A DNA stretch of 19,400 bases from Methanothrix sp. (GTDB lineage: Archaea > Halobacteriota > Methanosarcinia > Methanotrichales > Methanotrichaceae): the NCBI GenBank assembly GCA_037128175.1, contig JBAXWY010000050.1, positions 1 to 19,400 of the forward strand. Direction: 5' to 3'. Under the pieces are notes generated by a model. That model saw only the letters and a program-made list of their open reading frames with translations. It did not search any database and had not been told where the DNA came from. Below are positions 1 to 19,165 of the stretch, in pieces (position 1 is the stretch's first letter; every line of letters starts with the position of its first letter). Position numbers and translations under genes: made by a program.

Positions 1-161
1 GAGTTTCGATCGACTGCAAAACACCGTTTTTGCCTTTGATTCCTAAGTCGATGTCATATTCATTCCGGCGGGGGAGAAACACTGGCATGGTGCCGCTAAA
101 GATTGCACCTTCTCGCATATTTATGTCATGTCACCGGATCTGAAAATAACGCAAATTGAGG

Positions 162-300
162 ATTAAGATATTCGCGAACAAGTTCCACCTGGGCTTTGGT
201 ATTACGGCGGTTCGCTATTTACCACCCTGCCGTCACAATGTGCAGGTATCCTCCTGCACCGTCCAGTTATCCAACCTCAGTGCCATTTTGAGCTCCAACC
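162..300 (-). pseudogene. Decayed tyrosine recombinase/integrase fragment (region after box I, including the catalytic-Lys hairpin)
   Basis: With about 3 frameshifts and one stop, the minus strand reads ELKMALRLD-LDGAGGYLHIVTA-GGK*RTAVIPKP-VELVREYL. This matches the tyrosine recombinase pattern 'EL..L...D.D...G.L.I..(K)GGK.R.V.IP....ELLREYL'. Confidence 0.55.
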
Positions 301-331
301 CCTTCGATTATCAAAAAAGTAATGGAATGGC

Positions 332-1237
332 TTACTGCACCACCTTGGTGATAACAAGCCTCCATTCCTCACCATGAAGCCCTGCCGTTGTCCAGTAGCA
401 CTCCTTGTTCACTACCGTTTTATTGTCTCCAATGACTTCGAAATAGCTATAATTCCCATGCCCTGACCTCTCGGCCACAATCCTATGCTCCACCAATTCT
501 AGGAGGTCAGGGAACGGCTTGTATAGCGGATCTTCGAATAGATTCTTGCCTATCTGGCTCGTATCCTCGTCGTAGAGGAGTAGGCCATCACGATCCATTA
601 CCCAGAAAGTGTAATCGGCAATGCCGCTCCGATTGTTCATGTCACCATCGAGCAGAGGAGCTACAAGCTCATTGAGCAACTTATCAGGTTCAATGATTTC
701 AGTGATCCCTCCCAGGAACTCGCCTTGTGGGGAAAATATTGGATATGCTAGGGCTGTTCCGCTATATCCTTGAACCAGCAGGAACTGTTTGCTAAACACA
801 GGAGTTTTGGTCTGCAATAAGCTGGCAATATGTTCTTGCCTACTTATATCAGCCCCTTCGGCGCTCTCGCTTCCTTTGCCTTCTGCTATAATGATACTCC
901 CCTCCTTTCCAACTATGGATGTTTCAACCAGGTTTGAGTTAGTTTCCAACAGCTTGATCAGGACTTCGCGAGCAGCTGTTCCTTCTAATCCCGTTGTTGA
1001 GAGATTTTGAGATGTATCTGCTACATCCAAATCCAGATCATCCAGGCTGCCCTGCACGTCAGCCTGAAACTGGAGTAGCTTAAAGAGCATAGCTGCCTCG
1101 GATTCTGTCGCATTAAGACTGCTGTTAGGTACAGCCTGGCCGAAAGCAGCGATTGAGCAGAGAAGCAGAATAGCTGCAATCGCCGCCGCCGACGCAAAGC
1201 TGAATACCACTATTCCAGAATTTTTCTTCGGATTCAT
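332..1237 (-). CDS. Secreted stand-alone Cache-domain (dCache_1-like) protein
   Basis: 301-aa ORF with an N-terminal signal peptide (..AAILLLCSIAAFG). Cache-like motifs: DISRQEHI..LL.TKTPVFS, LAYPIFSPQGEFLGGI, WVMDRDGLLLYD.D..QIGKN. Several N-x-S/T sequons. No second TM helix or output domain. Confidence 0.8.
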   Translation of the reverse strand: MNPKKNSGIVVFSFASAAAIAAILLLCSIAAFGQAVPNSSLNATESEAAMLFKLLQFQADVQGSLDDLDLDVADTSQNLSTTGLEGTAAREVLIKLLETNSNLVETSIVGKEGSIIIAEGKGSESAEGADISRQEHIASLLQTKTPVFSKQFLLVQGYSGTALAYPIFSPQGEFLGGITEIIEPDKLLNELVAPLLDGDMNNRSGIADYTFWVMDRDGLLLYDEDTSQIGKNLFEDPLYKPFPDLLELVEHRIVAERSGHGNYSYFEVIGDNKTVVNKECYWTTAGLHGEEWRLVITKVVQ

Positions 1238-1290
1238 GCATCATCACTCCATATTTGCCAGAATTAATCCCAATATTCACCTAAACTCAA

Positions 1291-2217
1291 TCAGTTTGCT
1301 TCCTCATCATTAGCGTAGATCCCAGAGCCCAGGAACCAGGTGCCTTCTACGTCCACTACATAACTAAGCTTTAGCTTCTCGGTCATGTTTCTGGTTGGAT
1401 CGGGATAGATGTAATATGTGAAACCATTCCCTATTTTGGCAACGTCGATGAGCTGGCGGATCAAATAGACTCCATTGGGATCTTGATCATCGATTCCGTT
1501 TGTACCAATAATCTCTGGCTGGTAAGGAAGGGCCAAACTCTGTCCATTGTAGTCACGGGCAAATATATAGCGTCCATCTCTTGTGAAAGTTCCGTTTATA
1601 TCGTTGAAAACCGGCAGAGACTCTTCCTCGCCATTCTCTTTCGCAAACTGTAATGCTTCATTCACATAGGCAGCAAGTTCATCTCTCGCCTCCTTATCGA
1701 ATGAAGCGGATATATTGGAGAGGTATATCCCAGAGCCTAAGAACCAGTTATCATCTACTTTCATCACATAAGCGATTTTAAGTTCACTCTTATTATCGTG
1801 AGCAGGATTTGGGAAGATGAGGTAGTGAAATCCTGCTCCTTCTTTTGCGGCATTGATCCCCTCCCTCACGTACAAAACGCCGTTGGAATCCGATTCGTTC
1901 AGCTTGCTCTCGCCTATCCAATCGGTTTTGAACGGATGTGCAATGCAAGTTCCATTGAAATCGTATGCAAATAAGTAAAGCTCTCCATTGATAAACGAGC
2001 CAGTCTTATTGCTGAATTCCTTGAGTGACATCTCTTTGCCATGTTCATGCGCATAAGCCACAGCGGACTCGACAAAGGAGACGAGTTGTGTCTCGTTAAG
2101 TGAGGCACTTATCGATGCTCTTGCTATGCCTGATTTTTCTGCCAAAGCCGATTGAGTGCCGAAAACAATTGCACTCAACAGCAAAATGGCAGCCAATAGC
2201 ATATTCCAATTCTTCAT
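1291..2217 (-). CDS. Secreted protein with two tandem Cache_2-type domains
   Basis: Signal peptide MKNWNMLLAAILLLSAIVFGTQSALA. Two repeats of 'Y.FA.D.NG...A.P.....IG......D.NGV......I..AK.G.GF.Y...P.P......KL.YV..V...WFLGSGIY'. ATG 2217 preferred; TTG 2223 possible. Confidence 0.85.
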   Translation of the reverse strand: MKNWNMLLAAILLLSAIVFGTQSALAEKSGIARASISASLNETQLVSFVESAVAYAHEHGKEMSLKEFSNKTGSFINGELYLFAYDFNGTCIAHPFKTDWIGESKLNESDSNGVLYVREGINAAKEGAGFHYLIFPNPAHDNKSELKIAYVMKVDDNWFLGSGIYLSNISASFDKEARDELAAYVNEALQFAKENGEEESLPVFNDINGTFTRDGRYIFARDYNGQSLALPYQPEIIGTNGIDDQDPNGVYLIRQLIDVAKIGNGFTYYIYPDPTRNMTEKLKLSYVVDVEGTWFLGSGIYANDEEAN

Positions 2218-2303
2218 ATCCAATGTTGTTAGTTTATTCGATCAAAAGCCTTCGGTCAATCATGCCTTCGCACTGACAGAATTGAGTAATTGATCAAAGC
2301 CAT

Positions 2304-2420
2304 CCTTGTCTCCTGGAGTCCTGCCATCTCGGCAGCATCATTCAATAGCCTCTGGATCTGCTTAGTGGAGATATGTCCCTTGATCTCTGCCCGCGAAGAT
2401 AATATCCATGGGCCATTCTT
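2304..2420 (-). pseudogene. Decayed tyrosine recombinase/integrase fragment (segment between the Lys hairpin and box II)
   Basis: GHISTKQIQRLLNDAAEMAGLQETR is open in one frame and is preceded by HGY-IFAGRDQ via two 1-nt shifts. This fits the integrase pattern 'LFPGR..GHIS.RQIQR......A..AGL'. The HxLRH box is absent. Confidence 0.6.
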
Positions 2421-2539
2421 TCCATTATTCCTATCGCAGTTATGTCCTACTCAGAGCGCGCCAGGAAGATAGGATGCCAAGGACTTTCATGGAGACCAGG
2501 ACGTGGAATATCCAAGCTCGGTCAAATCTTCCATCAGAT

Positions 2540-2720
2540 GTATAAATCAGAACGTTCTTTAGTGATATTCGTGGGCAATGACATATTCTACCAACTGCTG
2601 CGAGATGATCGATCATGAGACCCTGGTTTTCGTCATTCTGCTCCTCATCGGCATGCTCACTCATTTGGGGCTGGGACTGTGTAGCAGTCGGTTCAAGAGC
2701 CAGCCTGTCTAACTTCCATT
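2540..2720 (-). pseudogene. Possible remnant of a YgjP/DUF45-like (HExxH) metallopeptidase gene
   Basis: The minus strand reads RVS*SIISQQLVEYVIAHEYH* (VEYVIAHE at 2591-2568), resembling 'LNWRLIMAP..VIDYVVAHELxH'. Disrupted by stops. Confidence 0.35.
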
Positions 2721-2880
2721 TGAAATTTTGATGTATTTATGCGCTCTCTGGACGGCGACTTATTTCCTGGATATCTCCAGCGACAGCCTCCTCATTTTGT
2801 CTCTTGCCACAAATTTCAAATATCTATTGCATATCTATTTATCACGAATTTAACGAGTCAAAAAGGAAGTGATGAGAAAT

Positions 2881-3870
2881 ATGAAGATTAGTACTTATTT
2901 GGTCCTATCTGTTGTAGCCCTTTTTTGTATACCATCATTGGCAATGGCATTTGTTCCTAATGTAGATCCTCTGCCTTCTTGGAACGAGGGATCTGCAAAA
3001 AATGCCATCCTCAGTTTTGTAGCAAATGTTACTAACAAGAGCAATCCGGACTATGTAGAAACTGAAGAGCGAATCGCCACCTTTGACAACGATGGCACTC
3101 TATGGTGCGAGTATCCGGATTACGTCCAGTCTCGCTTCATGTTCGATCGAGTTAAGGATATGGCTCCGGAGCACCCTGAATGGAATGATACACAACCTTT
3201 CAGTTCTATCCTTTCCGGTGAACGATTCTACGCCAGCAACTTCAGTACCAAAGAGGTAATGCAAATCTATGTCACCACCAGTTCGAATTTAACTGCTGAC
3301 GAATATATGAGTTTGGCAAGAAACTGGATCAATAGGTCCAAGAACCCTCACTTCGGGCTCTACTATACCAAGTGCATCTATAAACCCATGTTAGAGTTGT
3401 TGAGCTATCTGCGATACGAGGGCTTCAAGACCTACATAGTAACGGGAGGAGACGAGGACTTCGTGCGTGCTTTCTCTGATGAGGTATATGGAATCCCTCC
3501 TGAACAGGTGATCGGTTCGGCCATTAAGCTACAGTTCATTGAAAATAACAGTAGCTGCTCGGTCATGAAGCTTCCTGAAATCCTGGTCATTGATGACGGT
3601 CAGGAGAAGGCTAAGGAAATTCAGCTGAACATTGGGCGTCGTCCAATATTTGCCTACGGCAACTCGGATGGTGATATTCCTATGCTTCAATTCACCACTG
3701 GAGGCAATAGGCAAAGCATGGGTTTACTGAATCGCCACGACGATACTATCCGCGAGTACGCCTATGGTAATGAATCCGCTGTGGGAAGACTGGATAAAGG
3801 GCTTGAGCTCGCCGGTGAATGGGGCTGGCAGGTAGTCAGCATGAAAAACGACTGGAAATATATTTTTTAG
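2881..3870 (+). CDS. Secreted HAD-family hydrolase (non-specific acid phosphatase-like)
   Basis: Signal peptide followed by DPLPSWNEG. HAD motif I FDNDGTLW, motif II IVTGG, motif III Lys (DGQEK), motif IV GNSDGD, C-terminal VVSMKNDWK. SD-like GGAAGTGA at 2865-2872 favours ATG 2881 (2869 and 2872 are alternatives). Confidence 0.9.
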   Translation: MKISTYLVLSVVALFCIPSLAMAFVPNVDPLPSWNEGSAKNAILSFVANVTNKSNPDYVETEERIATFDNDGTLWCEYPDYVQSRFMFDRVKDMAPEHPEWNDTQPFSSILSGERFYASNFSTKEVMQIYVTTSSNLTADEYMSLARNWINRSKNPHFGLYYTKCIYKPMLELLSYLRYEGFKTYIVTGGDEDFVRAFSDEVYGIPPEQVIGSAIKLQFIENNSSCSVMKLPEILVIDDGQEKAKEIQLNIGRRPIFAYGNSDGDIPMLQFTTGGNRQSMGLLNRHDDTIREYAYGNESAVGRLDKGLELAGEWGWQVVSMKNDWKYIF

Positions 3871-3885
3871 ATACAGTACCATTCA

Positions 3886-3893
3886 TTTTTTTT
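3886..3893 (+). terminator. Archaeal oligo(T) terminator after the HAD gene
   Basis: T8 run starting 16 nt after the stop codon. Confidence 0.5.
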
Positions 3894-4087
3894 CTCAAAA
3901 TAAGCCGTGTTCATATTTTTGTTGGAGCTTCGTCGAGATATTCGCCTTCAATTTGCGGCTCCATCGCAGAACCTGGGTCCTGCCCCCGTCCGTGTTCCCG
4001 AGCACGAGCGCACTCACGCACGTGCCCGCGAGCGCCTCCTCCCAAGAGCTCGCCGGACGCTCCAATTGCATTTTCAGGAGATGTTTT

Positions 4088-4435
4088 TCATCCCCCGCAC
4101 TCCCCGCCGGACTCGTACGCCTCCCGGAGCTGATCGGCCACGCTCTCCGAAAGCATCTGCCCGGCCACGGTGAAGAAGACCTCGGCAAAATCGGGATTAA
4201 GGCAGCCGGTACTCTCCGTTCCTTCTATTACCAGGTCGGCCAGATAGCGCATATCCTCGACGGACAATTTTTTCAAGCGCTGCTCGAATTCCTGCACGCT
4301 TCTCGAGTGGTGATTGGCCACCGGGGGCAGAATGTTCAGGTACTCAATCTCTATTCCCTTCTTCTGCAGCACTTCCAGCTCTGGAACCAGCTTTATTAAA
4401 ATCTGCAGGTCTCTCTCATTCAGATCTCGGGCCAT
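4088..4435 (-). CDS. Hypothetical cytoplasmic protein, 115 aa, probably conserved in methanogens
   Basis: The protein-like part of ORF 4088..4756 starts at ATG 4435 (MARDLNERDLQILIKLVPE..PPVANHHS..ESTGCL..). The longer upstream extension overlaps xseA on the other strand and is unlikely. Confidence 0.75.
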   Translation of the reverse strand: MARDLNERDLQILIKLVPELEVLQKKGIEIEYLNILPPVANHHSRSVQEFEQRLKKLSVEDMRYLADLVIEGTESTGCLNPDFAEVFFTVAGQMLSESVADQLREAYESGGECGG

Positions 4436-4635
4436 GCAGGCAATAGTGCTCTGCAATAATATAGCGTTAACCGACAGATTGAGCTCTTCCATCCCTTTTC
4501 GGAACGGCTCGAATAAAGCATTTCGAAAAAGGTCTTTGAGTATCGAGCTGCAAGTCAAAGCCTTTATTAATGCGCAGCTTATCGAGTGATGATCGGTGCA
4601 AATTACATAAACGAATAGCGCTATTTGGGGCTTGA

Positions 4636-5637
4636 ATGGTATCTGTAGACAAGATTGCCGAAAATGATCGACATTTAGCAGATACAGATTCTGCTGATGT
4701 TTATTCTGTAACCGAGCTATCCCAGAACCTAAAGCGGTTTTTGTCGGAAACTCCATCGTTCAATAACGTCCGCTTAAAAGGAGAGATCTCCAACTTTGTC
4801 AGGGCCGCATCAGGTCACATTTACTTTGATTTAACGGAAGATGACTACGTTATCGCATGCGCATTCTTTAAACACCAGCAATTCGTCGGTTGCAGTGACC
4901 TTGGCAATGGGATCCAGGTCTTGGCATCAGGCACTGTAACAGTCTATGAGAAGAAAAGCCAGTATCGGCTCATAATCAGTAAGATCACAACAATCGGGGA
5001 TGGCGTCTCTTCCTCGGAATTTAAGCGCCGAAAGGATAAGCTTGAGAGAGAAGGCCTGTTCAGACAGGATCGGAAGAAGCCCATACCTCGTCTTCCCAGG
5101 AAGATCGGCGTTATCACCTCTAAGGATAGCACCGCCATTAAGGACATCCGGACTGTGGTTGATGCGCGATTTCCAAAGATGGACCTGGTGCTGGCCTATG
5201 CAACTATTCAAGGAGAAGGAGCACCGGGCAGCATAATCCAGGCACTAATCGCTCTTGCTAAGATCAGTGATGTGGATGCCATCATACTGGCAAGAGGCGG
5301 CGGCCCATCGGAAGATTTTATGGTTCTCAACGATGAGCAGCTAGTGCGGGTCATTGCTTCGAGCACCAAGCCCATAATCACGGGCATAGGTCACGAGAGA
5401 GATACGTGCCTGGTTGATTTGGCTGCGGACTTTAGAGCCTCTACGCCTTCTACTGCTGCCCAGGCAGTGATCCCGGATATCCAGGTGCTTAGAAATGACC
5501 TGAGTTCATTGAGGAAAAACTTGGATCGATCTAATCAATCCTACGAAGAGATAAATAAGGTTTCTAGGTACAAAGCCATTATTGCGGTACTGATTGTACT
5601 TTTATTGCTTGTCATACTGATATTTATGGTGAAATGA
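4636..5637 (+). CDS. xseA: Exodeoxyribonuclease VII large subunit, shortened, with predicted C-terminal transmembrane helix
   Basis: OB-fold motifs YSVTEL, GEISNF, SGHIYFDL. Catalytic-domain motifs EGLF..RKKPIP..P.KIGVITS, AIKD, IQGEGA, ARGGG..ED, GIGHERD..LVD.AAD, TPSTAA. Ends in KAIIAVLIVLLLLVILIFMVK. Confidence 0.93.
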   Translation: MVSVDKIAENDRHLADTDSADVYSVTELSQNLKRFLSETPSFNNVRLKGEISNFVRAASGHIYFDLTEDDYVIACAFFKHQQFVGCSDLGNGIQVLASGTVTVYEKKSQYRLIISKITTIGDGVSSSEFKRRKDKLEREGLFRQDRKKPIPRLPRKIGVITSKDSTAIKDIRTVVDARFPKMDLVLAYATIQGEGAPGSIIQALIALAKISDVDAIILARGGGPSEDFMVLNDEQLVRVIASSTKPIITGIGHERDTCLVDLAADFRASTPSTAAQAVIPDIQVLRNDLSSLRKNLDRSNQSYEEINKVSRYKAIIAVLIVLLLLVILIFMVK

Positions 5638-5644
5638 GGATCTT

Positions 5645-5842
5645 ATGGGTGACATTAAATATTTTTACAATATTCAAAGAATCAACGAGATTATATCACA
5701 GCTTGATGAGGGAAAGCTGCCTGCTCAAGAGGCAAAGAAGCAATTCAAAATAGCTAAGGGACTGGCTGATGAATGCGAAGAAATTCTAAATCGCTATTCT
5801 GGAACCGTTGAACAGATAAGCATCATTTCTGCAGGGCATTGA
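5645..5842 (+). CDS. xseB: Exodeoxyribonuclease VII small subunit
   Basis: 65 aa, 7 nt after the xseA stop, with SD-like GAGGA. Pattern RINEIISQLDEGKLP...A...F......A.ECEEIL......VEQI matches XseB. Confidence 0.85.
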   Translation: MGDIKYFYNIQRINEIISQLDEGKLPAQEAKKQFKIAKGLADECEEILNRYSGTVEQISIISAGH

Positions 5843-5958
5843 TTGCCTCGCAACCTCCTGATTGGGCCTGAGCAATTTCTAACTTAATTATAAACAAAAT
5901 ATTTTAAGCAAAAATTTTTTTAGGTCGCTTTAAAACGTATTCGTTGTCGTCTCTTGAT

Positions 5959-6019
5959 GCAAAAATTATAAATATTACTAGCTAAAATTATTATACTAGA
6001 TTTGAGGTGGATACTAGAT
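5959..6019 (+). promoter_or_regulatory. BRE/TATA promoter and SD of the transglutaminase-like gene, with three TACTAG repeats at 18-bp spacing
   Basis: GCAAAAA followed by TTATAAATA (5966-5974). TACTAG at 5976, 5994 and 6012. SD GAGGTG at 6004-6009. ATG 6018. Confidence 0.55.
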
Positions 6020-6713
6020 GGCTACAGGCTTTAACTGGGCGGGGAACGCAATTGTCAGAGATACGGTTATGTGGGACAAAAGAGCGGTCATCGGCAACCT
6101 GGGCCTCTACATTCCCACCGACATTCGGGCCTGGCTCTCTTCCACGAATAGCGAGGTTATCCAGAGAGCTTTGCAGGATATCGGTCTTCCCTCGGTTCGC
6201 GAGGCCGGCACATTTGACCCGCGGGTCTGGAAGATCTGGGATTATGTGGCTACTTCAGTGCAATATGTCACGGACAAAAGCTCCTTCGGCCTGGAGGACT
6301 TCTGGCTCTTTCCCGAGGAGACGCTCGTCTTGCACAAGGGCGACTGCGAGGATTCCTCTTTCCTGCTGGCTGCTCTTCTTCTGGCCAGCGGCATCTCTGA
6401 GCACTGTGTGCGCGTGGTTTTGGGCACGGTCACCACACCGGACGGATCCTTTGGCCATGCCTGGGTGGTCTACCAGAATGAGTCCGGCCGCTGGTGCCTG
6501 CTGGAGTCCACCCTGGATGCCGTCCCCTCCCAGCTGACGCCGGCTGATCCGTTTATAGTGCCTGGAAATGAATATAATTACAGGCCTCTGTTCTGCCTGA
6601 ACGGTTCTCACCTCTGGTCGATGGGGGCGGCAAATGCGCAGATGGCCGATTACCTGAAAACGAGGGGCAAGATCCAGGTGAGGCAGAAGGCCTCAAAAAA
6701 GAGGGTACTCTGA
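6018..6713 (+). CDS. Transglutaminase-like cysteine peptidase (BTLCP/C93-like fold), no signal peptide
   Basis: Motifs VQYVTD....EDFWLFPEETL...KGDCED, GHAWV and WCLLEST give a Cys-His-acid triad. Good SD. Confidence 0.85.
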   Translation: MATGFNWAGNAIVRDTVMWDKRAVIGNLGLYIPTDIRAWLSSTNSEVIQRALQDIGLPSVREAGTFDPRVWKIWDYVATSVQYVTDKSSFGLEDFWLFPEETLVLHKGDCEDSSFLLAALLLASGISEHCVRVVLGTVTTPDGSFGHAWVVYQNESGRWCLLESTLDAVPSQLTPADPFIVPGNEYNYRPLFCLNGSHLWSMGAANAQMADYLKTRGKIQVRQKASKKRVL

Positions 6714-6809
6714 GCCGGATCACTGGGCTTCAGATCCACCAAAAAGCGCTGCACATCTCTTCTCCAGGCATCCGCAACTATTTATCGATTGATCTCGGAC
6801 ACTTCCCAC

Positions 6810-8747
6810 ATGAAGAAGGCGATGAGCAATGTGGACGTCGCCGCCATGGCTGCGGAGCTATCCGACAGGATCCTGGGCGGCTTTATGGGCAAGGCCTACC
6901 AGCAGTCCTCGGACAAGATCTGGCTGTCTATCCAGTCTCCGGCGGAAGGCAGGCTGGATCTGCTCCTCGTGGCCGGCAAGAGGGTCAATATCACCAAAGG
7001 GCTGCGGCCTGCCTCCAAAACGCCTCCCCAATTTCCCACCATGCTCCGGAACCGTATAACCGGGGGCAGGATTGTCGAGATTTTGCAGCACGACCTGGAC
7101 CGGGTTCTGGAGATCGCAGTAGAACGCAGCGGCTCTCGCCATTATCTCGTTATCGAGCTGTTTCCCAAAGGCAGCATGATTCTGCTCGATGAGAACCGGC
7201 AGATCCTCTCCATGCTCAAAAAGATGGTCTACCGGGGCAGCAAAATGGCCGCCGGTGAGACGTACCTCTACCATCCCGGCCAGCTTGACCCCAGAACCAT
7301 TTCTCTGGAAGAGCTCTCAGCCTGGCTGGCCAGCGCCGGCCAGGATCTGGTCCGGTCCATTGTGCGAGGACTGAACATGGGCGGAACCTACGGCGAGGAG
7401 GTTTGCCTCGTGGCGGGAGTGGATAAGAATAAGCCCGCAGCAGATCTGGACCCAGGCGAGATTGAAAAGGTCCATCAGGCCTTAAGAGAGGTCTTTTTGA
7501 ATGACTCTCTCGATCCGCACATCGTTCTCGATAATGGCGAGCCGGTTGATGTCCTCTCCCGGCCTCTCAAGATCTACGAGGGTCTTGAGAAAAAGCGCTT
7601 TGCCACTTTCAGCGAGGCCCTTGATGCATTCTTCGTGGAAAAAGAGGGGGATGAAGAGAGGAAGAAAAACCCCCTGGATCGCCGCATCGAAGTGCAGCAA
7701 AAAGCGATTGAAGAGTTCGAGGCCCAGGAGAAGACATTCGTTGGCAAGGGCGAATTGGTCTACCAGATTTACGGCAGCGTGGAGCAGATTTTGTGCGTGG
7801 TGGCCGAGGCCAAAGCCAAGGGTTTTTCTTACAATCAAATCTGGGAGAGAATCAGCGGCTCGGGCCTGCCTCAGGCCAAGACCATTCTCTCTTTGGACGG
7901 GCAGGGGGAGATGCGCGTCCTGCTGGAGGGGGTGGAGCTGGAGCTACATGCCGGTCTCACCGTTCCCCAAAATGCGCAAAGGTATTACGAGAAGGCTAAG
8001 GAGATGGCCAGAAAAGGGAGCGGCGCAAAAGAAGCCCTGATCGTCACGAAGCAGCTAAGGGCAGGAAAGGCCGCTGCTCCAAAGAAGGCCCGTCCGGTCT
8101 CCTTCTACAGGAGGCGAAAGCCCAAGTGGTATGAGAGGTTCCGCTGGTTTTTCTCCTCGGACGGATTTATGGTGCTGGGGGGAAGAGATGCGGACGGCAA
8201 CGAGGAGATATACACCAAATATATGGAACGGCGTGACCTCGCTCTTCATACGGACGCTCCCGGCGCACCACTTACGGTGATCAAGACCGAGGGAGAGCCT
8301 GTACCCGAGAGCACTCTGCTGGAAGCTGCCCAGTTTGCCGTGAGCTACTCCTCGGTCTGGAAGGGCGGACTTGTGGCTGCCGATTGCTACATGATTAAGG
8401 GCGATCAGGTCAGCAAGACTCCGGAATCGGGTGAATTCTTAAAGAAGGGTGCTTTTGTCATCCGCGGGGAGCGTACTTACTTTAAAGATACGCCTCTGGG
8501 ACTGGCCCTGGGCATAGCCGATGGTGTTCTGGTGGGCGGGCCGGTCTCAGCAGTCAAGCCCAAAGCCGATCCCGTAGTGGAGATCGAGCCGGGGGAGCTG
8601 AATGCCGAAGATCTGGCCAAGAAGATTTACAGACAGTTTTCCGATAAAGTGGAGGACCGAGCATTCCTGAAGTCAGTCGCCTCAGTAGATCAGATGGTGC
8701 AGTTCCTGCCTCCGGGCGGATCGAAGATAAAAGAGAATACCGTCTGA
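6810..8747 (+). CDS. rqcH: Ribosome rescue/quality-control protein RqcH (Rqc2/NEMF, NFACT family)
   Basis: MKKAMSNVDV start. NFACT-N motifs F..MLR, Q...DRV, IELF..G. GLNMGG.YGEE, NAQRYYEKAK, and NFACT-R WYERFRWF.SSDG..V.GGRDA..NE..., QVSKTPESGEFL.KGAFVIRGER. Confidence 0.95.
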   Translation: MKKAMSNVDVAAMAAELSDRILGGFMGKAYQQSSDKIWLSIQSPAEGRLDLLLVAGKRVNITKGLRPASKTPPQFPTMLRNRITGGRIVEILQHDLDRVLEIAVERSGSRHYLVIELFPKGSMILLDENRQILSMLKKMVYRGSKMAAGETYLYHPGQLDPRTISLEELSAWLASAGQDLVRSIVRGLNMGGTYGEEVCLVAGVDKNKPAADLDPGEIEKVHQALREVFLNDSLDPHIVLDNGEPVDVLSRPLKIYEGLEKKRFATFSEALDAFFVEKEGDEERKKNPLDRRIEVQQKAIEEFEAQEKTFVGKGELVYQIYGSVEQILCVVAEAKAKGFSYNQIWERISGSGLPQAKTILSLDGQGEMRVLLEGVELELHAGLTVPQNAQRYYEKAKEMARKGSGAKEALIVTKQLRAGKAAAPKKARPVSFYRRRKPKWYERFRWFFSSDGFMVLGGRDADGNEEIYTKYMERRDLALHTDAPGAPLTVIKTEGEPVPESTLLEAAQFAVSYSSVWKGGLVAADCYMIKGDQVSKTPESGEFLKKGAFVIRGERTYFKDTPLGLALGIADGVLVGGPVSAVKPKADPVVEIEPGELNAEDLAKKIYRQFSDKVEDRAFLKSVASVDQMVQFLPPGGSKIKENTV

Positions 8748-8758
8748 AGATTTGCACC

Positions 8759-8803
8759 TTTTTTCGCGCTCCGTCGTCAGCCAGGCCCGAAAGATCCTGG
8801 CTG
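8759..8803. terminator. T-run plus 8-bp hairpin between convergent rqcH and arcS
   Basis: T6 at 8759-8764. Perfect stem CAGCCAGG (8778-8785) / CCTGGCTG (8796-8803) with a 10-nt loop. Confidence 0.45.
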
Positions 8804-8836
8804 CTTGAAAAGGAATGAGGATGATGCCGGAGATTA

Positions 8837-10579
8837 TCATTTTCCTTTGATATGCCTTATCTCCACGGCCACGCCCCGGCGCGAGGCCACCATTTCCCAG
8901 CCGGACATCTTCGCCTTCCCCACGCCGAAGGCCTTCTCTCCTATCACTATTACCTCGTCTCCTGGCCGGATCTGCTCGTCTGCATCAACAACGCCAGGCG
9001 CCAGCAAGGAGCCTTTGGGCAGGAAATCGCCGATCTTGACAATGTAGCGCCCCAGTGGCTCCAGCCGGGCTGCGCCAGCCAGGGAAAGAGCGATCATGCC
9101 GCTGGGCGTGGTCGCCGCCAGGGACCTCTTCTTCTCGTCCTGAATCTCCCGGCCCTTCACTATGATCTTTCCTGCCAGCAGGGCGTCTCCTGCTCTCTCT
9201 CCAAAGTAGTAATCGGCATGGGCCCGGTAGCGCAGGAGGCGCAGATCGGGCAGGCGCGCCGCTCCATGGCAGGCTTCGCTTACCGCCGCGCTGAGCCGGT
9301 CCAGAGCCGGGCCTTTGCTGCCGCCCCCGGTAAATGTGGCATCAATGCCGCTCTCTTTTACCGCCTGCTCCAGCTCGCCATCGAGATGGGCTACGATCCT
9401 GGCGTACTTGTTCTTCTTGAGGTAGGCTTGCAAACAGCTCGTCAGCCACGCTCTTTCTTCTCTGTCCCAGCGGCCGGTGACGGGAACGTCGTAGCTGGCC
9501 GCAGGATAGGCTTCCTCCAGCTCGCGTGGCACAAGGGCCAGGGGCGAGGTCAAAATCAGCTCGTGCAGATAGCGGCGGTGGCCTCCCACCGACTCCGCGA
9601 AGAGCCGGTGCGATCGGGATAAGGAGTAGGGCTTTTTTGCCGAGCAGGGCAGGAGCAGCAAGACATCGCTTTCTGGAGCCTTGTAGCGGTTGATCACCCT
9701 CTCAGCAAAGCGAGTGACTTCCACCCGCTGCAAGGATTCGGCGCAATTGGCATAAAAGGTGCTGCGCCGGCTCTGGGGCGTCCTCTTCTCCAGGTACTGG
9801 TGCTCGCCGTCCAGCAGGCGCAGGGCCGCCGTTTGTTCCGGCGTTACCCGCACCTGCCGCTCGATGTATTCGCGTATGGTCTCGGAGCGAATAGCCTCAC
9901 GAACGGCGAGCAGCTCTTCTTCCAGCTTATGCAGATTGTGGGCAATAAGTAGCTGTGCCTTTCTTCCGCTGGCGGCCATCTCCCGGCAATTTTCGCAGCG
10001 GCAAGGCAACTCCACTAGCTCCGACGCCTTCCAAACGCCATCGCGGGTGTGGTAACGGCCCAGCAGGCCGTCCGCTACGACGCGCGTCCCGTCCAGCATA
10101 TCGATGCCCAGATACACAAGCAAGGCCAGGTTGGCAGGTGTGGCCAGGGCGGGGGCATAAAGAGCTGTGTCCGGGGCGACCTTCTCTCGCACACTTACAA
10201 TGGCCGCCACCAGATCTCTAGGATTTTTCAACGCCCCGCTGCTGCCCAGCACATAGACATCGGCTTTTTCCGGCTCCGTTGCGCTAAAGGGATGGACCAT
10301 CACGCCCTTGGGGCCCGCCAATTCAAGGGGCGGCAGCTCCAGGGCCGGCTCGGAGCGAAGAGCTGCGGGCACGTAGGGCAGTATGGCCAGCTTCTTTTGC
10401 TCCCGCAAAGCCTCGGCGGCATTTATGGCATCCTGAAGAGATGTGTAGCTGTAGACGCTGCCCGCCGAGACGTAATCGTCCTTGGTGATCAGGGCGGGGG
10501 TGCTGATCTGCGGCTCTGTAAGCAGCTTTCCCATGCGGGCCGGGCCGTCGCGGCGGACTACCTCGAAGTACTTGGTCAT
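8837..10579 (-). CDS. arcS: Archaeosine synthase subunit alpha (ArcS), TGT-like domain plus C-terminal PUA domain
   Basis: MTKYFEV..RDGPARMGKL. Zn motif LPCRC..C...HN. ArcS signature LLPCSAKKPYS.SRSH, TSPL.LVPRELE..YPA..YDVPVTG.W. PUA motif LAPGVVDAD..IRPGDEV. Confidence 0.95.
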   Translation of the reverse strand: MTKYFEVVRRDGPARMGKLLTEPQISTPALITKDDYVSAGSVYSYTSLQDAINAAEALREQKKLAILPYVPAALRSEPALELPPLELAGPKGVMVHPFSATEPEKADVYVLGSSGALKNPRDLVAAIVSVREKVAPDTALYAPALATPANLALLVYLGIDMLDGTRVVADGLLGRYHTRDGVWKASELVELPCRCENCREMAASGRKAQLLIAHNLHKLEEELLAVREAIRSETIREYIERQVRVTPEQTAALRLLDGEHQYLEKRTPQSRRSTFYANCAESLQRVEVTRFAERVINRYKAPESDVLLLLPCSAKKPYSLSRSHRLFAESVGGHRRYLHELILTSPLALVPRELEEAYPAASYDVPVTGRWDREERAWLTSCLQAYLKKNKYARIVAHLDGELEQAVKESGIDATFTGGGSKGPALDRLSAAVSEACHGAARLPDLRLLRYRAHADYYFGERAGDALLAGKIIVKGREIQDEKKRSLAATTPSGMIALSLAGAARLEPLGRYIVKIGDFLPKGSLLAPGVVDADEQIRPGDEVIVIGEKAFGVGKAKMSGWEMVASRRGVAVEIRHIKGK

Positions 10580-10750
10580 GCCTTTTGTGCCTCTCTTCTT
10601 ATCGATGCAAGTGATCTTGGATTTAGAGCGGTGGACTTCAACATATCACCGCCAATTACTATCTAATCGTATAAATAGGAGATTTGAGTCTATACGTTCA
10701 ACTCTTAAAAGCGGCTTAATATAACAATTAGGGTATTCAATGGTTGTCTT

Positions 10751-10913
10751 CTTTGCGCCAATCAAGGCTTCGCGTGAGGTTTCAGTGGCTGCGCTAGTAC
10801 AGCCGGGCCTAATTAAAGCCATCTTAACGTGAGATTCAACAGGGTCCGGTTTCACGCGAAGGCGCGAAGCCGCGAAGTTAAAACATTGATTTTTGCGGCT
10901 TCATGTCCATGCG
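10751..10913. repeat. GC-rich REP-like palindromic elements built from CGCGAAG units
   Basis: TCACGCGAAGGCGCGAAGCCGCGAAG (10852-10877) contains three CGCGAAG units at 8-bp period. An inverted copy CTTCGCGTGA lies at 10768-10777 and a degenerate inverted arm TTTTGCGGCTTCATGTCCATGCG at 10891-10913. Confidence 0.65.
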
Positions 10914-11604
10914 CCCACTCAGGATTGCTGGCGTCATAGGCTCTCGTTGCCGGGTGTCAGGCTCTTGCGGGGGTTGAGCCCTGTTTTCGCGCATCTTAAC
11001 TGCGGGGAGTATGTGCAACATGTGAAGATCTTCTCTTTTTTCCATTCTTTTTTTGACAAGACCAAAATCACTCTTGACGATCTGACTTTTCCATACTTGT
11101 GGAATGAATTTTCGACAATTGCCAGCTATAGATTAATTGCCACCAGCGAGATCAAAATTGTGCTGTGGTATCCGTAGCGCAACATGAGAGGGTTTGAGCC
11201 TAGAAAGATGCTTATACTAATCTGCTAGGGCTTTCTTTTCCCTTTTCAGACCGTCCATGGGCCTCCTCCTGGCAGGATAGGTAGTATATGTAACTTACAG
11301 GCCTGGTATGTATTCTACTAGAGAAAAGTTCTATGGCATTTTTACTAGGATCTGGCTAAATGTCCTAGAATAGAACTAAATTGAGGCTTAGGACCTGACC
11401 AGCTTAGGACTCTTTCCCATTAAGCCTTAAGAAAGGTAATAATCAGAAAGTGGTTCAATTATATAAATTTTATAAAACTGTAGATGAATAGTAGGAACGG
11501 AGCATATCTCGATACGTGACCTCTACAGGTGACAATACAACGTGAGCATACCCAAGTCGATTGCCAGAAGGTGTATCTACTCAAACGACTCCAATGGAAG
11601 GATA

Positions 11605-12216
11605 ATGAAATTAGCTGCCTTGGTCATGTTGCTGGCTGTATTCGCAATGCCTGTTGTAGCAGATGATGTGGACAGGTGGATTCAGGATCTCAAAGATCCA
11701 ATTCCGGCTGTACGAGAAGCTGCTGCAGTGGCTTTTATAGGACATAGTGATACACGAGCAGTCGATCCACTGATCCAGGCTCTCGAAGATAAGGATCCAC
11801 GGGTCCGAATGTATGCTGCATTTGCCCTTGGCAAACTCAATGATACTATTCAGGCTCTCGACGATTCTGATTGGCCGGTCCGAGGGCATGCTGCTGAGGC
11901 TCTCGGCTATCTTGGTGACACTAGAGCTGTTGGACCGTTGATTCAGATTCTCAAGGATGAGGAACCTCGGGTCCGAGGGAGTGCTGCATTTGCCCTCGGC
12001 AAACTCAATAACACCAGAGCAGTAGGACCGCTGATAGTGTTGCTCAATGATGAGGCCTCGGTGGTCCGATTGAATGCTGCTGAGGCTCTCGGTAAACTTA
12101 ATGATACCAGAGCTTTAATGCCATTGGTTCAGGCTACCAAGGATGATGACCAGTATGTCCGAGAGCATGCTAAAGAAGCTATCTACCATATGTATATAGC
12201 CTATCCTGATCTTTAG
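11605..12216 (+). CDS. Secreted HEAT-repeat (PBS lyase-like) protein
   Basis: Signal peptide MKLAALVMLLAVFAMPVVA. About six 31-aa repeats 'L.D....VR..AA.ALG.L.DTRAV.PLI'. ATG 11605 preferred over GTG 11542. Confidence 0.9.
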   Translation: MKLAALVMLLAVFAMPVVADDVDRWIQDLKDPIPAVREAAAVAFIGHSDTRAVDPLIQALEDKDPRVRMYAAFALGKLNDTIQALDDSDWPVRGHAAEALGYLGDTRAVGPLIQILKDEEPRVRGSAAFALGKLNNTRAVGPLIVLLNDEASVVRLNAAEALGKLNDTRALMPLVQATKDDDQYVREHAKEAIYHMYIAYPDL

Positions 12217-12295
12217 GCCCATGATGGTTTTATAAACACCTGCTCCTGGTTTATAGACTAAGTGCGTGGAATGAGAACCCCGCATGCCTTAGTAT

Positions 12296-12805
12296 TTAAT
12301 CGAATTCGAGATATGTTCCGTGAACATTCAATTCCAATTTTGAAAAACAGATGTTGTCTTTCAAATTTATACGCTCAAATTTAGCATATACGATATCACC
12401 TTTCTCCAAGTAGAAGGTCTTATCAAAAAAACACGGGGAATTGGCCCCTACATTTGTCCAAGGCTCACCAATAGGATGCCATTCAGGATTTCCATTTTTT
12501 GGAATCAATATACCAATTGTTATTTTTCCCGAATGGCTGCTAAAATTTATAACTGTGAGAGACTCGATCTTGACAATCCCTTCAGCAGGTTCGGTATACA
12601 GTTCCATTTCAGTTGCGCCAACGGATTTAGAAGAGATACTCCTAAATATTCGCGTCCCTTGGTTTTTGGTCCTAAAAAGAGCATAATTGACTGCATGCGA
12701 TCTGCTGCCAAATCGCTTCTTATTTTCTATATTTTGATCAACCCAAGCTAGGAGATCCTCGTCTATTGTTAGATTCGTGTTCTTCTGTGTGGACGTATTT
12801 ATCAC
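12296..12805 (-). CDS. Ribbon-helix-helix (CopG/NikR-like) protein fused to a beta-rich C-terminal domain
   Basis: N-terminal KNTNLTIDEDLLAWVDQNIENKKRFGSRSHAVNYAL is an RHH pattern. GTG 12805 lies about 24 nt after a TATA box (GTG 12823 is the alternative). Confidence 0.75.
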   Translation of the reverse strand: MINTSTQKNTNLTIDEDLLAWVDQNIENKKRFGSRSHAVNYALFRTKNQGTRIFRSISSKSVGATEMELYTEPAEGIVKIESLTVINFSSHSGKITIGILIPKNGNPEWHPIGEPWTNVGANSPCFFDKTFYLEKGDIVYAKFERINLKDNICFSKLELNVHGTYLEFD

Positions 12806-12806
12806 C

Positions 12807-12837
12807 GTGTAGTTAATACACACTTTACTTATATATC
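12807..12837 (-). promoter_or_regulatory. TATA box and palindromic operator candidate of the RHH gene
   Basis: Minus-strand GATATATAAG (12837-12828). Inverted repeat GTGTA-gttaa-TACAC (12807-12821) between the TATA box and the start codon. Confidence 0.5.
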
Positions 12838-12990
12838 TCTTGCTCTGGATCAGTCATGTTTCCCTCGCATCCTTCACCTTTATCGTGGCTTGGTGCAATC
12901 GCACAATTTCATATTATAGATCTAATCCGAAATTGGCAGGCATATTTAGAGGCCAACAAGCATATCTTCGTTAAGCACTTCCTCGATCCT

Positions 12991-13941
12991 ATGAGATTGA
13001 TTCATGTCGTTTTCATCCTTATTCTGGCATTGATAACATCTGCACAATGTCAGATGACTGCAGAAGATTGGGTCAATAAAGTATTATATCACCAAAATCA
13101 GGATAAATACGATGAGGTCATCAAAGCCTATGATGAGAGCATCAAGGATTGGGAGAACGTCATCAGTATAAGTCCCAGTGATCTTAGCAAATGGGTCATC
13201 AAAGGTCCTGGATACGATTATATCAGGCATGATAATGCCATCAAAGCTTATGAAGATGCCATAAAGGCTTACGACGAAGCTATTCGACTAAATCCCAACG
13301 ATGTCGTAGCTTGGTACAACAAAGGCATTGCTCTAAAAACACTTTGCAACTACGATAATGCCATCAAATGTTTTGACGAGACCATCAGGCTAGATCCCAA
13401 CAATGCTGGTGCCTGGAATGGCAAAGGCGTTGCTCTTTATTACCAGGGGATAGATGATGATGCCATCAAATGTTTCGACGAGGTCATCCGACTAGATCCC
13501 AACAATTCCGAAGCATGGAGCAACAAAGGTGCTGCTCTTCGTTTCCAGGGGAAGTACGATGAGACCATTCAAGCTTTGGACAAGGCAATTGGACTAGATC
13601 CCTGCATTGTCGAGGCTTGGATCATAAAAGGTGATACATTCCTTGAATTAAACAAATTCAAAGAATCAGGTTTGGCATATGAAAATGCTATTAGATTAAA
13701 TTCGGTAGATAAATGGGAGTGGCACAGCCTAGGATTAGGCTTTGATGGCCTTGCAGAGCATTACGAAGATGTGGGAGATCATGCGAAAGCTATCGAGTAT
13801 TATCGAAAATCAAATGGATGCTATGAACGTACCATCGAATTAAACGGAGGAGATATAACTAATCCCAGCGGGGTAGATCTAGAACATAATATAGTTTATG
13901 TTCGGAAGAAACTTCAGCTTCTAATCGGCTCACAGGGATAA
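12991..13941 (+). CDS. Secreted tetratricopeptide-repeat protein
   Basis: Signal peptide MRLIHVVFILILALITSAQC followed by QMTAEDW. Multiple 34-aa repeats AW.NKG.AL...G.YD.AIK.FDE.IRLDP. ATG 12991 preferred. Confidence 0.9.
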   Translation: MRLIHVVFILILALITSAQCQMTAEDWVNKVLYHQNQDKYDEVIKAYDESIKDWENVISISPSDLSKWVIKGPGYDYIRHDNAIKAYEDAIKAYDEAIRLNPNDVVAWYNKGIALKTLCNYDNAIKCFDETIRLDPNNAGAWNGKGVALYYQGIDDDAIKCFDEVIRLDPNNSEAWSNKGAALRFQGKYDETIQALDKAIGLDPCIVEAWIIKGDTFLELNKFKESGLAYENAIRLNSVDKWEWHSLGLGFDGLAEHYEDVGDHAKAIEYYRKSNGCYERTIELNGGDITNPSGVDLEHNIVYVRKKLQLLIGSQG

Positions 13942-13984
13942 ATGATGCAATTCAAAGAATCTGTTAGACGAAAATCCATGTGTT

Positions 13985-14071
13985 GACAACGGATTCGCTT
14001 CCGAAACACTTGATCGCAAAGCTGATTCAGATGCAGCCTTCGCCAAGGCCAGAGAGTTGGGATATGCGGGA
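13985..14071 (+). pseudogene. Out-of-frame relic of a TPR-protein C-terminus
   Basis: Reads DNGFASETLDRKADSDAAFAKARELGYAG, resembling the 'LGR..EADAAFAKAKELGY.G' ending I recall from Methanothrix secreted TPR proteins. Lies 43 nt after the TPR stop, in a different frame. Confidence 0.55.
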
Positions 14072-14483
14072 AAGTCTCAGTCTAGAGCAGTATGTGTAAC
14101 CTGCAATCCATTTCCTCTTTTTTCCATATGCATTAAACCACAGGATATTATTATATAAAAGGACTCTTCTCGGCTCAAACTCCCTTCGGTTGCATGGCGG
14201 ATTATAGCTTTGCTTTTTGCGTTTAATGCTCTCGATAAATAGTTATCCGTGAATTGTAAACATGGCGTTCCATTAACTATGGAATTACGAGATAGACTGA
14301 AGTGGATTTAGATCGATTTGAGATAGTTATATAATCTACTATGGATAACTCGCGAGTTCGATGAGCCAGTCCAATCTCTTGGTAATGCCATAAAATTGCC
14401 ATGATGATATGATGACGTGATACTACTGAGACGCAAATGGCCTGTGGCCAATTTATTTATACAAAGCTCGCCATGCATCATCT

Positions 14484-14651
14484 ATGGCTGGGACCGTGAA
14501 AGAGACTGCTATGCCTGTTCGCGGAGAGACCGAAGAGGAAATCAAAGCTCTCCTGATGGGTACGGATGTAGCTTGGACGCAGTATAAGCGAGATCATGGA
14601 ACACGAGTTACTAGCGCCAAGGAACTAGATGCTTTTCTCGACGGCCTTTGA
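14484..14651 (+). CDS. Putative antitoxin, 55 aa (not in the ORF track)
   Basis: MAGTVKETAMPVRGETEEEIKALLMGTDVAWTQYKRDHGTRVTSAKELDAFLDGL*. Acidic. TTTATA box about 23 nt upstream. Its TGA overlaps the toxin TTG (TTGA at 14648-14651). Confidence 0.75.
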   Translation: MAGTVKETAMPVRGETEEEIKALLMGTDVAWTQYKRDHGTRVTSAKELDAFLDGL

Positions 14652-14986
14652 GCATTTTTCGTATGGTCCGAAAAAGAAGTATTAGCAATCCAGGGCCAGA
14701 TCAGGGCACAACAGAGAACCCATATAGTCTGTTCTTTCCTGATGAGATCAAGAATCAACTATCACGCATTAAAAGGAAAGACAAAGTGCTGTTCGAACAG
14801 CTTAGGAAGCGTTTTGAAAAGCTTCGCACAAATCCGGAATGCGGAGAGGTCTTAAGTCATGACAAAGCCGGACATCGGGAAGTCCATGTCAAGGATCACT
14901 GGGTTGTCATTTACAGGACGGATTACAGCGTTCAAACCATCGTCATAGTCAAAATTGGATCTCATGAAAAAGTATTGGGTAGATGA
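14648..14986 (+). CDS. Type II toxin, RelE/StbE/YafQ-family mRNA interferase
   Basis: Basic protein with YSLFF.....QL..IKRKD, KL..NPECGEVLSHDKAGHREVHVKDHWVVIYR....TIVIVKIGSHEKV. Start TTG 14648 or ATG 14663. Confidence 0.88.
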   Translation: MSIFRMVRKRSISNPGPDQGTTENPYSLFFPDEIKNQLSRIKRKDKVLFEQLRKRFEKLRTNPECGEVLSHDKAGHREVHVKDHWVVIYRTDYSVQTIVIVKIGSHEKVLGR

Positions 14987-15076
14987 GAAAAACGATATGA
15001 ACGAGCAGTTCATACGCCGGGACGTGGAATGGGGTCTCTACGGCGATGACTGATGTGGCATTGAACTCCGCACCGC

Positions 15077-16531: not shown

Positions 16532-16595
16532 AAGTTCTCCCTTACCAATAAGGAATAAATAGGTTGGGACAGATTTCCAGCAGAGGATAATTAAT

Positions 16596-17087: not shown

Positions 17088-17102
17088 AAAGATAGAAAAG
17101 AT

Positions 17103-19061: not shown

Positions 19062-19165
19062 AAAAGACCTCCAGCAGGCGTATTAATCCTGGATTGATAT
19101 TCCTGGACCCTTGGTTACGATCATATTAAACTCTAGCGATGGCGTGAATCAATTGGGCACAAAGG

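Follow-up and report, generated by a model that had tools for sequence, protein, structure and literature searches.

A two-gene exonuclease VII cassette of Methanothrix encoding a large subunit with a conserved, predicted C-terminal membrane anchor

Exonuclease VII (ExoVII), a bidirectional exonuclease specific for single-stranded DNA, has so far been studied as a soluble repair nuclease, and the closest described system is the Escherichia coli enzyme, an XseA4.XseB24 complex of solved structure (PDB 8TXR; Liu, Hauk, Yan and Berger 2024, PMC10835039). According to that account, E. coli XseA contains helical segments of ~42-44 amino acids (aa), each binding two XseB, and a C-terminal barrel that is the primary dimerisation element; XseA lengths vary among homologues in quantised steps, and purified XseA alone is inactive. 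Why the nuclease heads should sit on a long, length-variable, XseB-stiffened rod with a dimerising barrel is an open question according to the same authors. Here we describe a tailed form of this enzyme, encoded by an xseA-xseB pair in a 19,400-nucleotide (nt) stretch of Methanothrix sp. DNA (contig JBAXWY010000050.1, positions 1 to 19,400; hereafter the window). Its large subunit, XseA-TM, retains the catalytic residues of ExoVII, lacks the barrel and ends instead in a conserved segment predicted to be transmembrane (TM), and the pair is a dispensable accessory beside a canonical xseAB in the same genome.

Two other described systems are relevant. Tail-anchored proteins (PMC6593721) resemble XseA-TM in that their only TM segment lies at the very C-terminus, a signal peptide is lacking and the N-terminal domain is cytosolic, all of which are predictions for XseA-TM. 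SNIPE (2026, PMC13190303) shares the concept of a nuclease held constitutively at the membrane, where location distinguishes foreign from own DNA; it is bacterial and its defence role was shown experimentally, whereas defence by XseA-TM is hypothetical, and no sequence relationship between the two is expected. As to the E. coli enzyme, the tailed pair is like it in the OB fold, the dehydroquinase-like catalytic domain, the four catalytic residues, the XseB-bound neck helix, the XseB β-strand that complements the catalytic sheet, the quantised helix length and the adjacency of xseA and xseB (PMC10835039). It differs in having about one XseB site in this member, compared to six in E. coli, in a stalk step that is a recognisable ~49-aa repeat, whereas Liu et al. 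report no defined repeat, and in being an accessory paralog rather than the sole copy.

The first-pass annotation of this DNA had read the 333-aa product as an XseA with an OB fold and recognisable catalytic motifs, and each of the named motifs was indeed present: AIKD (residues 167-170), IQG (191-193), RGGG..ED (220-227), GHERD (252-256) and D..AD (261-265). The OB-fold family PF13742 was matched, as was the NCBIfam model TIGR00237 xseA (2e-94; 317 bits against a cut-off of 180; residues 24-302), and Pfam PF02601 Exonuc_VII_L matched residues 141-302 (3.6e-57). Both of the latter end early, at profile position 162 of 315 (Pfam, from position 1) and model position 278 of 389 (TIGR00237, also from 1). 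Since the match is confined to these positions, the C-terminal domain of the TIGR00237 model is unmatched; the conserved C-terminal β-barrel is absent, and the TM segment occupies the terminus. Among PDB sequences the sole phmmer match was E. coli XseA (8txr_A, E 7e-56), in which D170, R220, H253 and D256 align with positions 155, 205, 238 and 241; the solved chain, being the H238A mutant, carries alanine at 238. Mutation of these four E. coli residues abolishes activity (Poleszak et al. 2012, PMC3439923). Overall, XseA-TM is a bona fide XseA with its catalytic tetrad intact. The 65-aa open reading frame (ORF) downstream was matched by PF02609 Exonuc_VII_S (1.4e-7) and scored 34.5 bits with TIGR01280, just below the cut-off of 35. 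The xseA stop codon (5635-5637) is separated from the xseB ATG at 5645 by 7 nt, and a GAGGA (5636-5640) overlaps the stop codon, in agreement with the earlier reading of a closely spaced xseB with its own Shine-Dalgarno sequence.

XseA-TM terminates as ...NKVS-RYK-AIIAVLIVLLLLVILIFMV-K, in which A314-V332 are 19 uncharged hydrophobic residues, followed by K333 and the stop; about 26-32 aa of neck helix lie between the catalytic domain and RYK. The Kyte-Doolittle (KD) mean of the tail is 3.71 over 19 aa, the best other window in residues 1-290 being 1.82, in the core of the catalytic domain, and only 4 of 2000 shuffled XseA-TM sequences reached 3.0. Residues 1-60 are hydrophilic; their top 19-aa window is -0.14, and hence no signal-peptide-like segment is present. 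The TM call combined hydropathy, a predicted helix at 309-332 and conservation, while the signal-peptide call used hydropathy only. By hydropathy the protein thus has the layout of a tail anchor, with one hydrophobic segment, a single residue after it and no other TM segment, and the description given earlier (RYK, 19 uncharged hydrophobic residues, a final lysine, no signal peptide) proved correct in every detail. DNA nucleases are not known among tail-anchored cargo.

The tail is not peculiar to this protein. It was found, as [KR]-Y-K followed by 19-22 hydrophobic residues and usually R-G, in 65 of the 120 best database matches, all 65 being at least 45% identical to the query, while 47 more distant, canonical-type matches among the same 120 had no window above 1.7, their full-length members ending in the usual ..DG..v.v.. 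domain. Pooling of database proteins and loci produced a clade set of 95 unique sequences, 86 of which contain an end-of-catalytic-domain motif that served as ruler. The tail was present in 79 of these 86, with 1-7 residues between the 19-aa window and the C-terminus, and the other seven were either truncated by contig ends or frameshift-like. Across the clade the composition of the tail is conserved and its sequence is not. Tail-less close homologues and a private frameshift had been named by the first-pass annotation as grounds for refutation; the homologue collection and the tree showed instead a tail conserved in the clade, and because of this conservation a private frameshift or assembly error was rejected as its source. 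Computation thus supports a conserved TM segment of the tail-anchor type. Among species-representative genomes, 4 of 101 XseA ORFs were tailed, labelled Methanosaeta, Methanotrichaceae or Methanosarcinales; the other 97 and the canonical paralog terminate in a ..DG....V.. domain.

Three clade members without a tail deserve separate mention. One of them (L170, 1123-2451, the same type as P0040) has a different, non-hydrophobic C-terminus of ~60 aa, with xseB 18 nt downstream. The other two, L167 and L173, terminate prematurely, leaving distances of 352 and 182 nt to the downstream xseB, and appear frameshift-like.

In a tree built from OB and catalytic columns only (89 rows, quick IQ-TREE, with the Shimodaira-Hasegawa-like approximate likelihood ratio test, SH-aLRT, as sole support), 26 tailed and 2 tail-less rows grouped together (SH-aLRT 96), apart from the canonical XseA clade of Methanotrichaceae (100); the canonical XseA proteins of Clostridia and of other Methanosarcinia belong to the same unresolved part of the tree as this group. 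Because the tailed and canonical XseA fall in separate, well-supported clades, a recent duplication of the host's canonical xseA was rejected as the source of the tailed copy. A wider search of a 1.84-billion-protein library gave 23,111 family matches at E 0.001, and inspection of the best 150 representatives among these 23,111 matches revealed four further tailed proteins at 36-41% identity. One of the four was placed inside the main clade and two with the divergent L056, whereas P0138 fell beside canonical sequences. When 28 tailed rows, all but P0138, were constrained to group together, the log-likelihood rose by 40.6 over the free quick tree (p-AU 0.856, approximately unbiased test). Since the constrained tree has the better likelihood, a single origin of the tailed forms, the bacterial singleton P0138 excepted, is allowed and even favoured by these sequences, albeit not proven. 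An Atlas search returned XseA clusters only, the top one with a 327-aa representative and 66 members ('Bacteria 71%, commonest Chloroflexota').

P0138 itself (343 aa; NCBI label 'MAG ... [bacterium]') ends in ...ERYK and ~22 hydrophobic residues, although it is a bacterial-type XseA, 54-60% identical to proteins labelled Acidobacteriota and Methylomirabilota. The tail was absent from all 119 of its nearest relatives, and for this reason it remains an unexplained singleton, whose tail could have arisen independently, been acquired by transfer or be a private artefact.

The stalk between head and anchor varies in steps. Its length in clade members, counted between the catalytic domain and the TM window, falls into groups of 16-17, 38-46, 52-66, 88-102, 116, 140-150, 182-192 and 205 residues, and in alignment A1 the longer stalks repeat a ~49-aa unit (L.N.L.SL...L[DE]RSY.[SA]YL...). 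The stalk of about 30 aa remarked on in the first-pass annotation is therefore real for this member, and it does not hold as a family trait, since the helical stalk ranges from 0 to ~200 aa in the clade. Presence of the stalk coincides with xseB. The metagenomes provided 30 clade loci (24 tailed, 3 cut by a contig end, 3 without a tail), in which xseB followed on the same strand at -25 to +8 nt in all 20 assessable stalked tailed loci and in none of the 4 stalk-less ones; these rows are partly dependent, as L159 repeats the sequence of the window itself, L162 and L165 are identical, L175-L182 belong to a single lineage and the four stalk-less loci come from two lineages. In genomes, six further distinct stalked loci had xseB, the stalk-less locus of G025 had none, and the divergent L056 had an overlapping xseB. 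This bears out the earlier impression that the pair is maintained.

The stalk-less tailed forms (L123 of G025, 4255-5187; L183-L186; P0057 and P0069) are 310-312 aa long and have no adjacent xseB; D256 is replaced by N in the G025 form, which reads GHSGN, and R220 by K in P0069. Since they make up one nested subclade (SH-aLRT 100), the loss of the stalk is secondary. Given that E. coli XseA alone is reported inactive, such forms may by analogy be inactive or borrow the canonical XseB, or they may work differently.

The AlphaFold2 (AF2) model of XseA-TM, built from alignment A1, had a mean per-residue confidence (pLDDT) of 72, with the catalytic domain at ~90 and the OB fold poor, and it showed a helix at 282-306, a break, and a second helix at 309-332; its best structural match was 8txr (Foldseek, E 1.4e-24). 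For the complex, residues 125-333 of XseA were modelled with two XseB copies, using small alignments of our own. The complex scored 0.78 against 0.27 for the best control, a mark that 58 of 80 solved complexes but just 2 of 110 mismatched pairs attained; contact agreement between runs was at least 62% and partner pLDDT at least 72. Since the E. coli complex is already solved, this outcome is a likeness and not an independent proof. Confident contacts came from XseB copy 1 only, the helices of which packed on XseA 282-307, while XseB 51-58 lined up on strand 179-189 of the catalytic sheet. This modelled placement matches the head-proximal XseB of E. coli ExoVII (Liu et al. 2024, PMC10835039). 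The helical region of XseA-TM is limited to 282-306, with one XseB docking in the model, compared to up to ~200 aa in other members of the clade. The model thus fits one XseB per XseA in this member, and the reduced XseB stoichiometry suggested by the first-pass annotation, for which a complex model had been proposed as a check, is very probably right, as only helix 282-307 is available and one of the two XseB offered docks with confidence.

The window's genome is 99.8% complete and has a second, canonical pair on contig C4, namely an XseA of 401 aa with the C-terminal domain and an XseB of 69 aa, overlapping by 4 nt. The two pairs belong to the same family, have the same gene order and are both intact, but the canonical XseA ends in a β-barrel (...GRGRLRCRVLE...) where the tailed one ends in the TM segment. 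They are also well diverged, the XseA proteins being 34% identical and the XseB proteins 23% over 35 aa. In the order, 97 of 105 genomes had an XseA match and 8 had the tailed type, each of these with a canonical copy as well; in the class, 8 of 392 genomes scored 437-566 bits with the clade profile, the next best being 300. The tailed xseAB is thus a dispensable accessory to the canonical xseAB.

To locate the boundaries of the tailed locus, positions 1-10600 of the window were compared by blastn with the syntenic loci of the four genomes nearest by NFACT (94-96% aa identity; G051, G054, G074 and G069), none of which has the tailed type. Homology of the flanks, which are 93-94% identical to the window, ended at 4472 and restarted at 5860 (G051, G054) or 5955 (G074, G069), and the four relatives had 45 or ~3 unrelated bases in place of the intervening sequence. 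These breaks and clean empty sites establish 4473-5859 as a discrete unit of ~1.39 kb that is lost or exchanged among close relatives. In G067 the tailed pair was found at the same site, even though its flanks are more distant (82-87% nucleotide identity). The GC content of the cassette is 0.453, against 0.584 for the canonical xseA. In one further genome (G017; locus L122/L039, 537-1406) the tailed xseA contains two TAA codons and ends at residue 289 on a 3.4-kb contig, and it is a probable pseudogene. The features of the cassette are collected in Table 1.

Table 1. Positions of the tailed xseAB cassette and its parts in the window, with the basis of each assignment.
Feature	Coordinates	Strand	Basis
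Whole two-gene cassette: own upstream region, xseA-TM, xseB	4473..5859	+	blastn against syntenic loci; junction alignment
Cassette upstream region, AT-rich, with TTTATTAA stretch ~70 nt before the ATG; presumed promoter	4473..4635	+	Sequence read; cassette boundary
xseA-TM, tail-anchored exonuclease VII large subunit (predicted anchor), 333 aa	4636..5637 (incl. stop)	+	ORF list, Pfam, NCBIfam, 8txr_A alignment, Foldseek
OB-fold DNA-binding domain, residues 23-117	4702..4986	+	PF13742 1.6e-20; AF2 pLDDT ~40-60 (low)
Catalytic domain, residues 141-281, with D170/R220/H253/D256	5056..5478	+	PF02601, 8txr_A alignment, AF2 pLDDT ~90
Neck helix, residues 282-306, single predicted XseB-binding site	5479..5553	+	AF2 helix; complex-model contacts 282-307
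Juxtamembrane R311-Y312-K313	5566..5574	+	[KR]-Y-K conserved across the clade at the predicted cytoplasmic TM boundary (tail lists, alignment A1)
C-terminal TM segment (predicted) A314-V332, then K333 alone	5575..5631	+	KD over 19 aa 3.71; AF2 helix 309-332; kept in the clade
Shine-Dalgarno-like GAGGAT, overlapping the xseA stop, 4-5 nt before the xseB ATG	5636..5641	+	Sequence read
xseB, 65-aa small subunit specific to the tailed paralog	5645..5842	+	PF02609 1.4e-7; conserved beside tailed xseA

Our leading proposal, to which we assign an even chance, is that this self-contained cassette encodes an accessory, tail-anchored, cytoplasm-facing XseA-XseB nuclease that degrades single-stranded DNA (ssDNA) at the inner face of the membrane, above all foreign DNA as it enters. 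It takes the family, the catalytic residues, the conserved tail, the paralogy, the cassette indel and the xseB-stalk coupling from computation, and infers membrane insertion, topology, oligomeric state, activity and substrate. In mechanistic terms, XseA-TM keeps the OB fold and the full tetrad, with the tail anchor taking the place of the lost β-barrel, and the single C-terminal helix would hold it in the cytoplasmic membrane with the nuclease head in the cytoplasm; this orientation is expected because there is no signal peptide, RYK lies on the N-terminal side of the segment and one residue follows it. Insertion would be post-translational. Archaeal Get3 homologues bind tail-anchored proteins (PMC6593721), and the genome codes for a full-length ATPase of the Get3/ArsA family (228 bits), but this says little since the family was matched in 14 of 14 control genomes. 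The pair's own diverged XseB, probably in a 1:1 ratio to XseA, would bind the sole remaining neck-helix site and place a strand on the catalytic sheet. The E. coli holoenzyme brings two dimers together by their heads, with the tails pointing away from each other (PMC10835039); such an autoinhibited, spindle-shaped tetramer would be hard to form here, because both tails would sit in one membrane. XseA-TM thus probably works as a membrane-bound dimer or monomer without an autoinhibited state, in which case location rather than steric autoinhibition would limit its reach, and the length of the helical stalk (16-205 aa in the clade) would set the distance of the head from the membrane. The canonical soluble ExoVII would do housekeeping repair, and the tailed enzyme would degrade entering foreign ssDNA. 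A role on foreign DNA, rather than in housekeeping, is favoured by the patchy distribution, the behaviour of the cassette, its low GC content and the presence of some defence neighbours.

The last of these was seen in 4 of 13 distinct contexts, which had defence-type genes within 6 kb among the selected neighbours scanned. A DrmD/BrxH-like SNF2 helicase lies 1.1 kb downstream of the tailed pair in G036, a type I restriction-modification operon 0.5 kb upstream in L168 and a Schlafen-group-3-like helicase 5.5 kb away in L181, and in G014 the pair is adjoined by ZacB/ZacC, names of the Azaco system. As only selected neighbours were scanned, without a background rate, these genes are a lead and not an enrichment. 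A stronger form of the proposal, which we regard as unlikely in its entirety, would make the tailed pair a stand-alone mobile immune module of methanogenic archaea, with self and non-self told apart by location, the stalk serving as a ruler, adjusted by ~49-aa (~7 nm) units to the entry machinery of different invaders, and tethering replacing the autoinhibited tetramer as the safeguard of the chromosome; its targets would be ssDNA ends or intermediates of viral or plasmid DNA.

Several observations weigh against the proposal of a nuclease acting on entering DNA. The other 9 of the 13 contexts had no defence gene among the selected neighbours scanned and contained surface proteins, metabolic genes or nothing recognisable. 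In the conserved-neighbour search no neighbour except xseB recurred across lineages, and no PADLOC-DB 2.0 model matched XseA-TM or its XseB (E 0.001). A search for a ComEC-type uptake channel found no ComEC-family match in the 99.8%-complete genome. The nested stalk-less subclade has no adjacent xseB and includes members with N at D256 or K at R220, so that not every clade member need be an active nuclease. As to the calculations, the passing complex model, made from our own small alignments, may reflect model memory of the solved 8TXR, and both trees were quick, with SH-aLRT only, the divergent row L056 having shifted between them. RNA libraries from two studies contributed assembled contigs that map to 4965-5194 within xseA (one of four RNA runs gave nothing), which lends weak support to transcription of xseA-TM; being assembled contigs, they allow for DNA carry-over and convey neither strand nor level, and the parts of the window that they do not cover carry no meaning.

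Two observations on the neighbours stand apart from this weighing. An apparent neighbour cluster of 10 loci consisted of TPR/HEAT repeat proteins. In the 479-490-aa lineage (L175-L182; in L181 at 9974-12058, minus strand), a large protein of up to 694 aa is always encoded just downstream of xseB on the opposite strand; it has no Pfam match, and a DGHHR-like stretch was seen by eye near its N-terminus.

The best surviving alternative, although unlikely, is that the tethered enzyme is active but serves the cell's own DNA near the membrane, e.g., in removing DNA-protein adducts, in processing ends at a membrane-attached chromosome, or in division or filament tasks. It would accord with the established roles of ExoVII in repair and DNA-protein crosslink processing (PMC10835039, PMC7929499), with the fact that both the window and the stalk-less lineage have core genes as neighbours (NFACT, archaeosine synthesis and CDC48), and with the nine contexts in which the neighbours scanned included no defence gene. 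Nonetheless, one would not expect a housekeeping function to be limited to 8 of 105 genomes of the order or to take the form of a clean indel amid flanks that are 93-94% identical, and canonical xseAB is always present too. It is improbable, to a greater degree, that the paralog is decaying or neofunctionalised into an anchored non-nuclease, such as a DNA-binding tether or scaffold, with its conserved residues a relic. The broken members (G017 with its two stops, and the tail-less or frameshift-like L167 and L173), the stalk-less forms without xseB, and N at the D256 position in four sequences could all be so explained; however, H..D is found at the 253/256 positions in 81 of the 95 unique sequences by motif scan, alignment A1 (down to 46% identity) shows no variation at D170 and H253 and hardly any at R220 and D256, all 20 of the stalked forms have retained xseB, and the catalytic domain was modelled at pLDDT ~90. 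More improbable still is nutrient salvage, in which the tethered enzyme would cut imported environmental DNA into oligonucleotides at the point of entry; placement at the inner face would suit any DNA import route and ExoVII does yield short oligonucleotides (PMC10835039), but no ComEC-family channel was found in the 99.8%-complete genome, no transporter or pilus gene is conserved beside the cassette, and the distribution is patchy. That the hydrophobic C-terminus stays out of the membrane, as an oligomerisation helix substituting for the lost barrel in a soluble complex, is most improbable, for even though loss of the dimerisation element calls for a replacement (PMC10835039), 19-22 consecutive I/L/V/A/F residues of KD ~3.2-3.8 between [KR]YK and R/G, with 1-7 residues after them and their composition but not their sequence kept, fit a lipid-embedded anchor rather than an interface in a soluble complex.

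Full-text searches of the literature found no description of a membrane-anchored XseA, in line with the first-pass annotation, which knew of no functional description of this architecture; the supplements of Liu et al. 2024 (length survey of ~340 species, Fig. S5) lie outside that coverage and may already include or exclude tail-anchored forms. The tailed clade offers a natural experiment on the ExoVII rod, with the barrel exchanged for an anchor, a rod that ranges from 0 to ~200 aa in discrete repeats, and XseB kept exactly when the rod is present. Through it one could test whether the rod serves as a spacer or ruler, whether catalysis requires the proximal XseB, and whether spatial confinement can replace autoinhibition by the tetramer. 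If the role in defence is true, the tailed pair would give archaea a conceptual parallel to SNIPE and other membrane-located nucleases; if the enzyme serves repair, it would suggest a DNA-processing task close to the membrane that is not known in archaea. Methanothrix, for which genetics by cultivation is not available, is of large importance for methane production.

The remaining observations concern the surroundings of the cassette. A 222-aa ORF on the minus strand (4088-4756) overlaps the start of xseA by 121 nt; it is probably over-extended, the real gene being likely at ~4088-4435, because the homologue in G067 is 115 aa long and homology with the relatives ends at 4472. It has no Pfam or PADLOC match, is kept beside the cassette site with or without the cassette, and is covered by RNA-library contigs at 4300-4419. 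Two stretches of the window, 1-6000 and 11000-15000, are low in GC (0.40-0.49), the background being 0.56-0.62. The first contains genes for two Cache-domain proteins and for a HAD-like protein with a signal peptide, in addition to the cassette; in the second lie genes for HEAT- and TPR-repeat proteins and for a ParE/YafQ-type toxin (14648-14986). Lastly, two genes related to tRNA-guanine transglycosylase (TGT) lie 4.5 kb apart on the minus strand (8837-10579 and 15077-16660), one with DUF5591, PUA and TGT_C2 domains (archaeosine-synthase-like) and the other with a full TGT domain.

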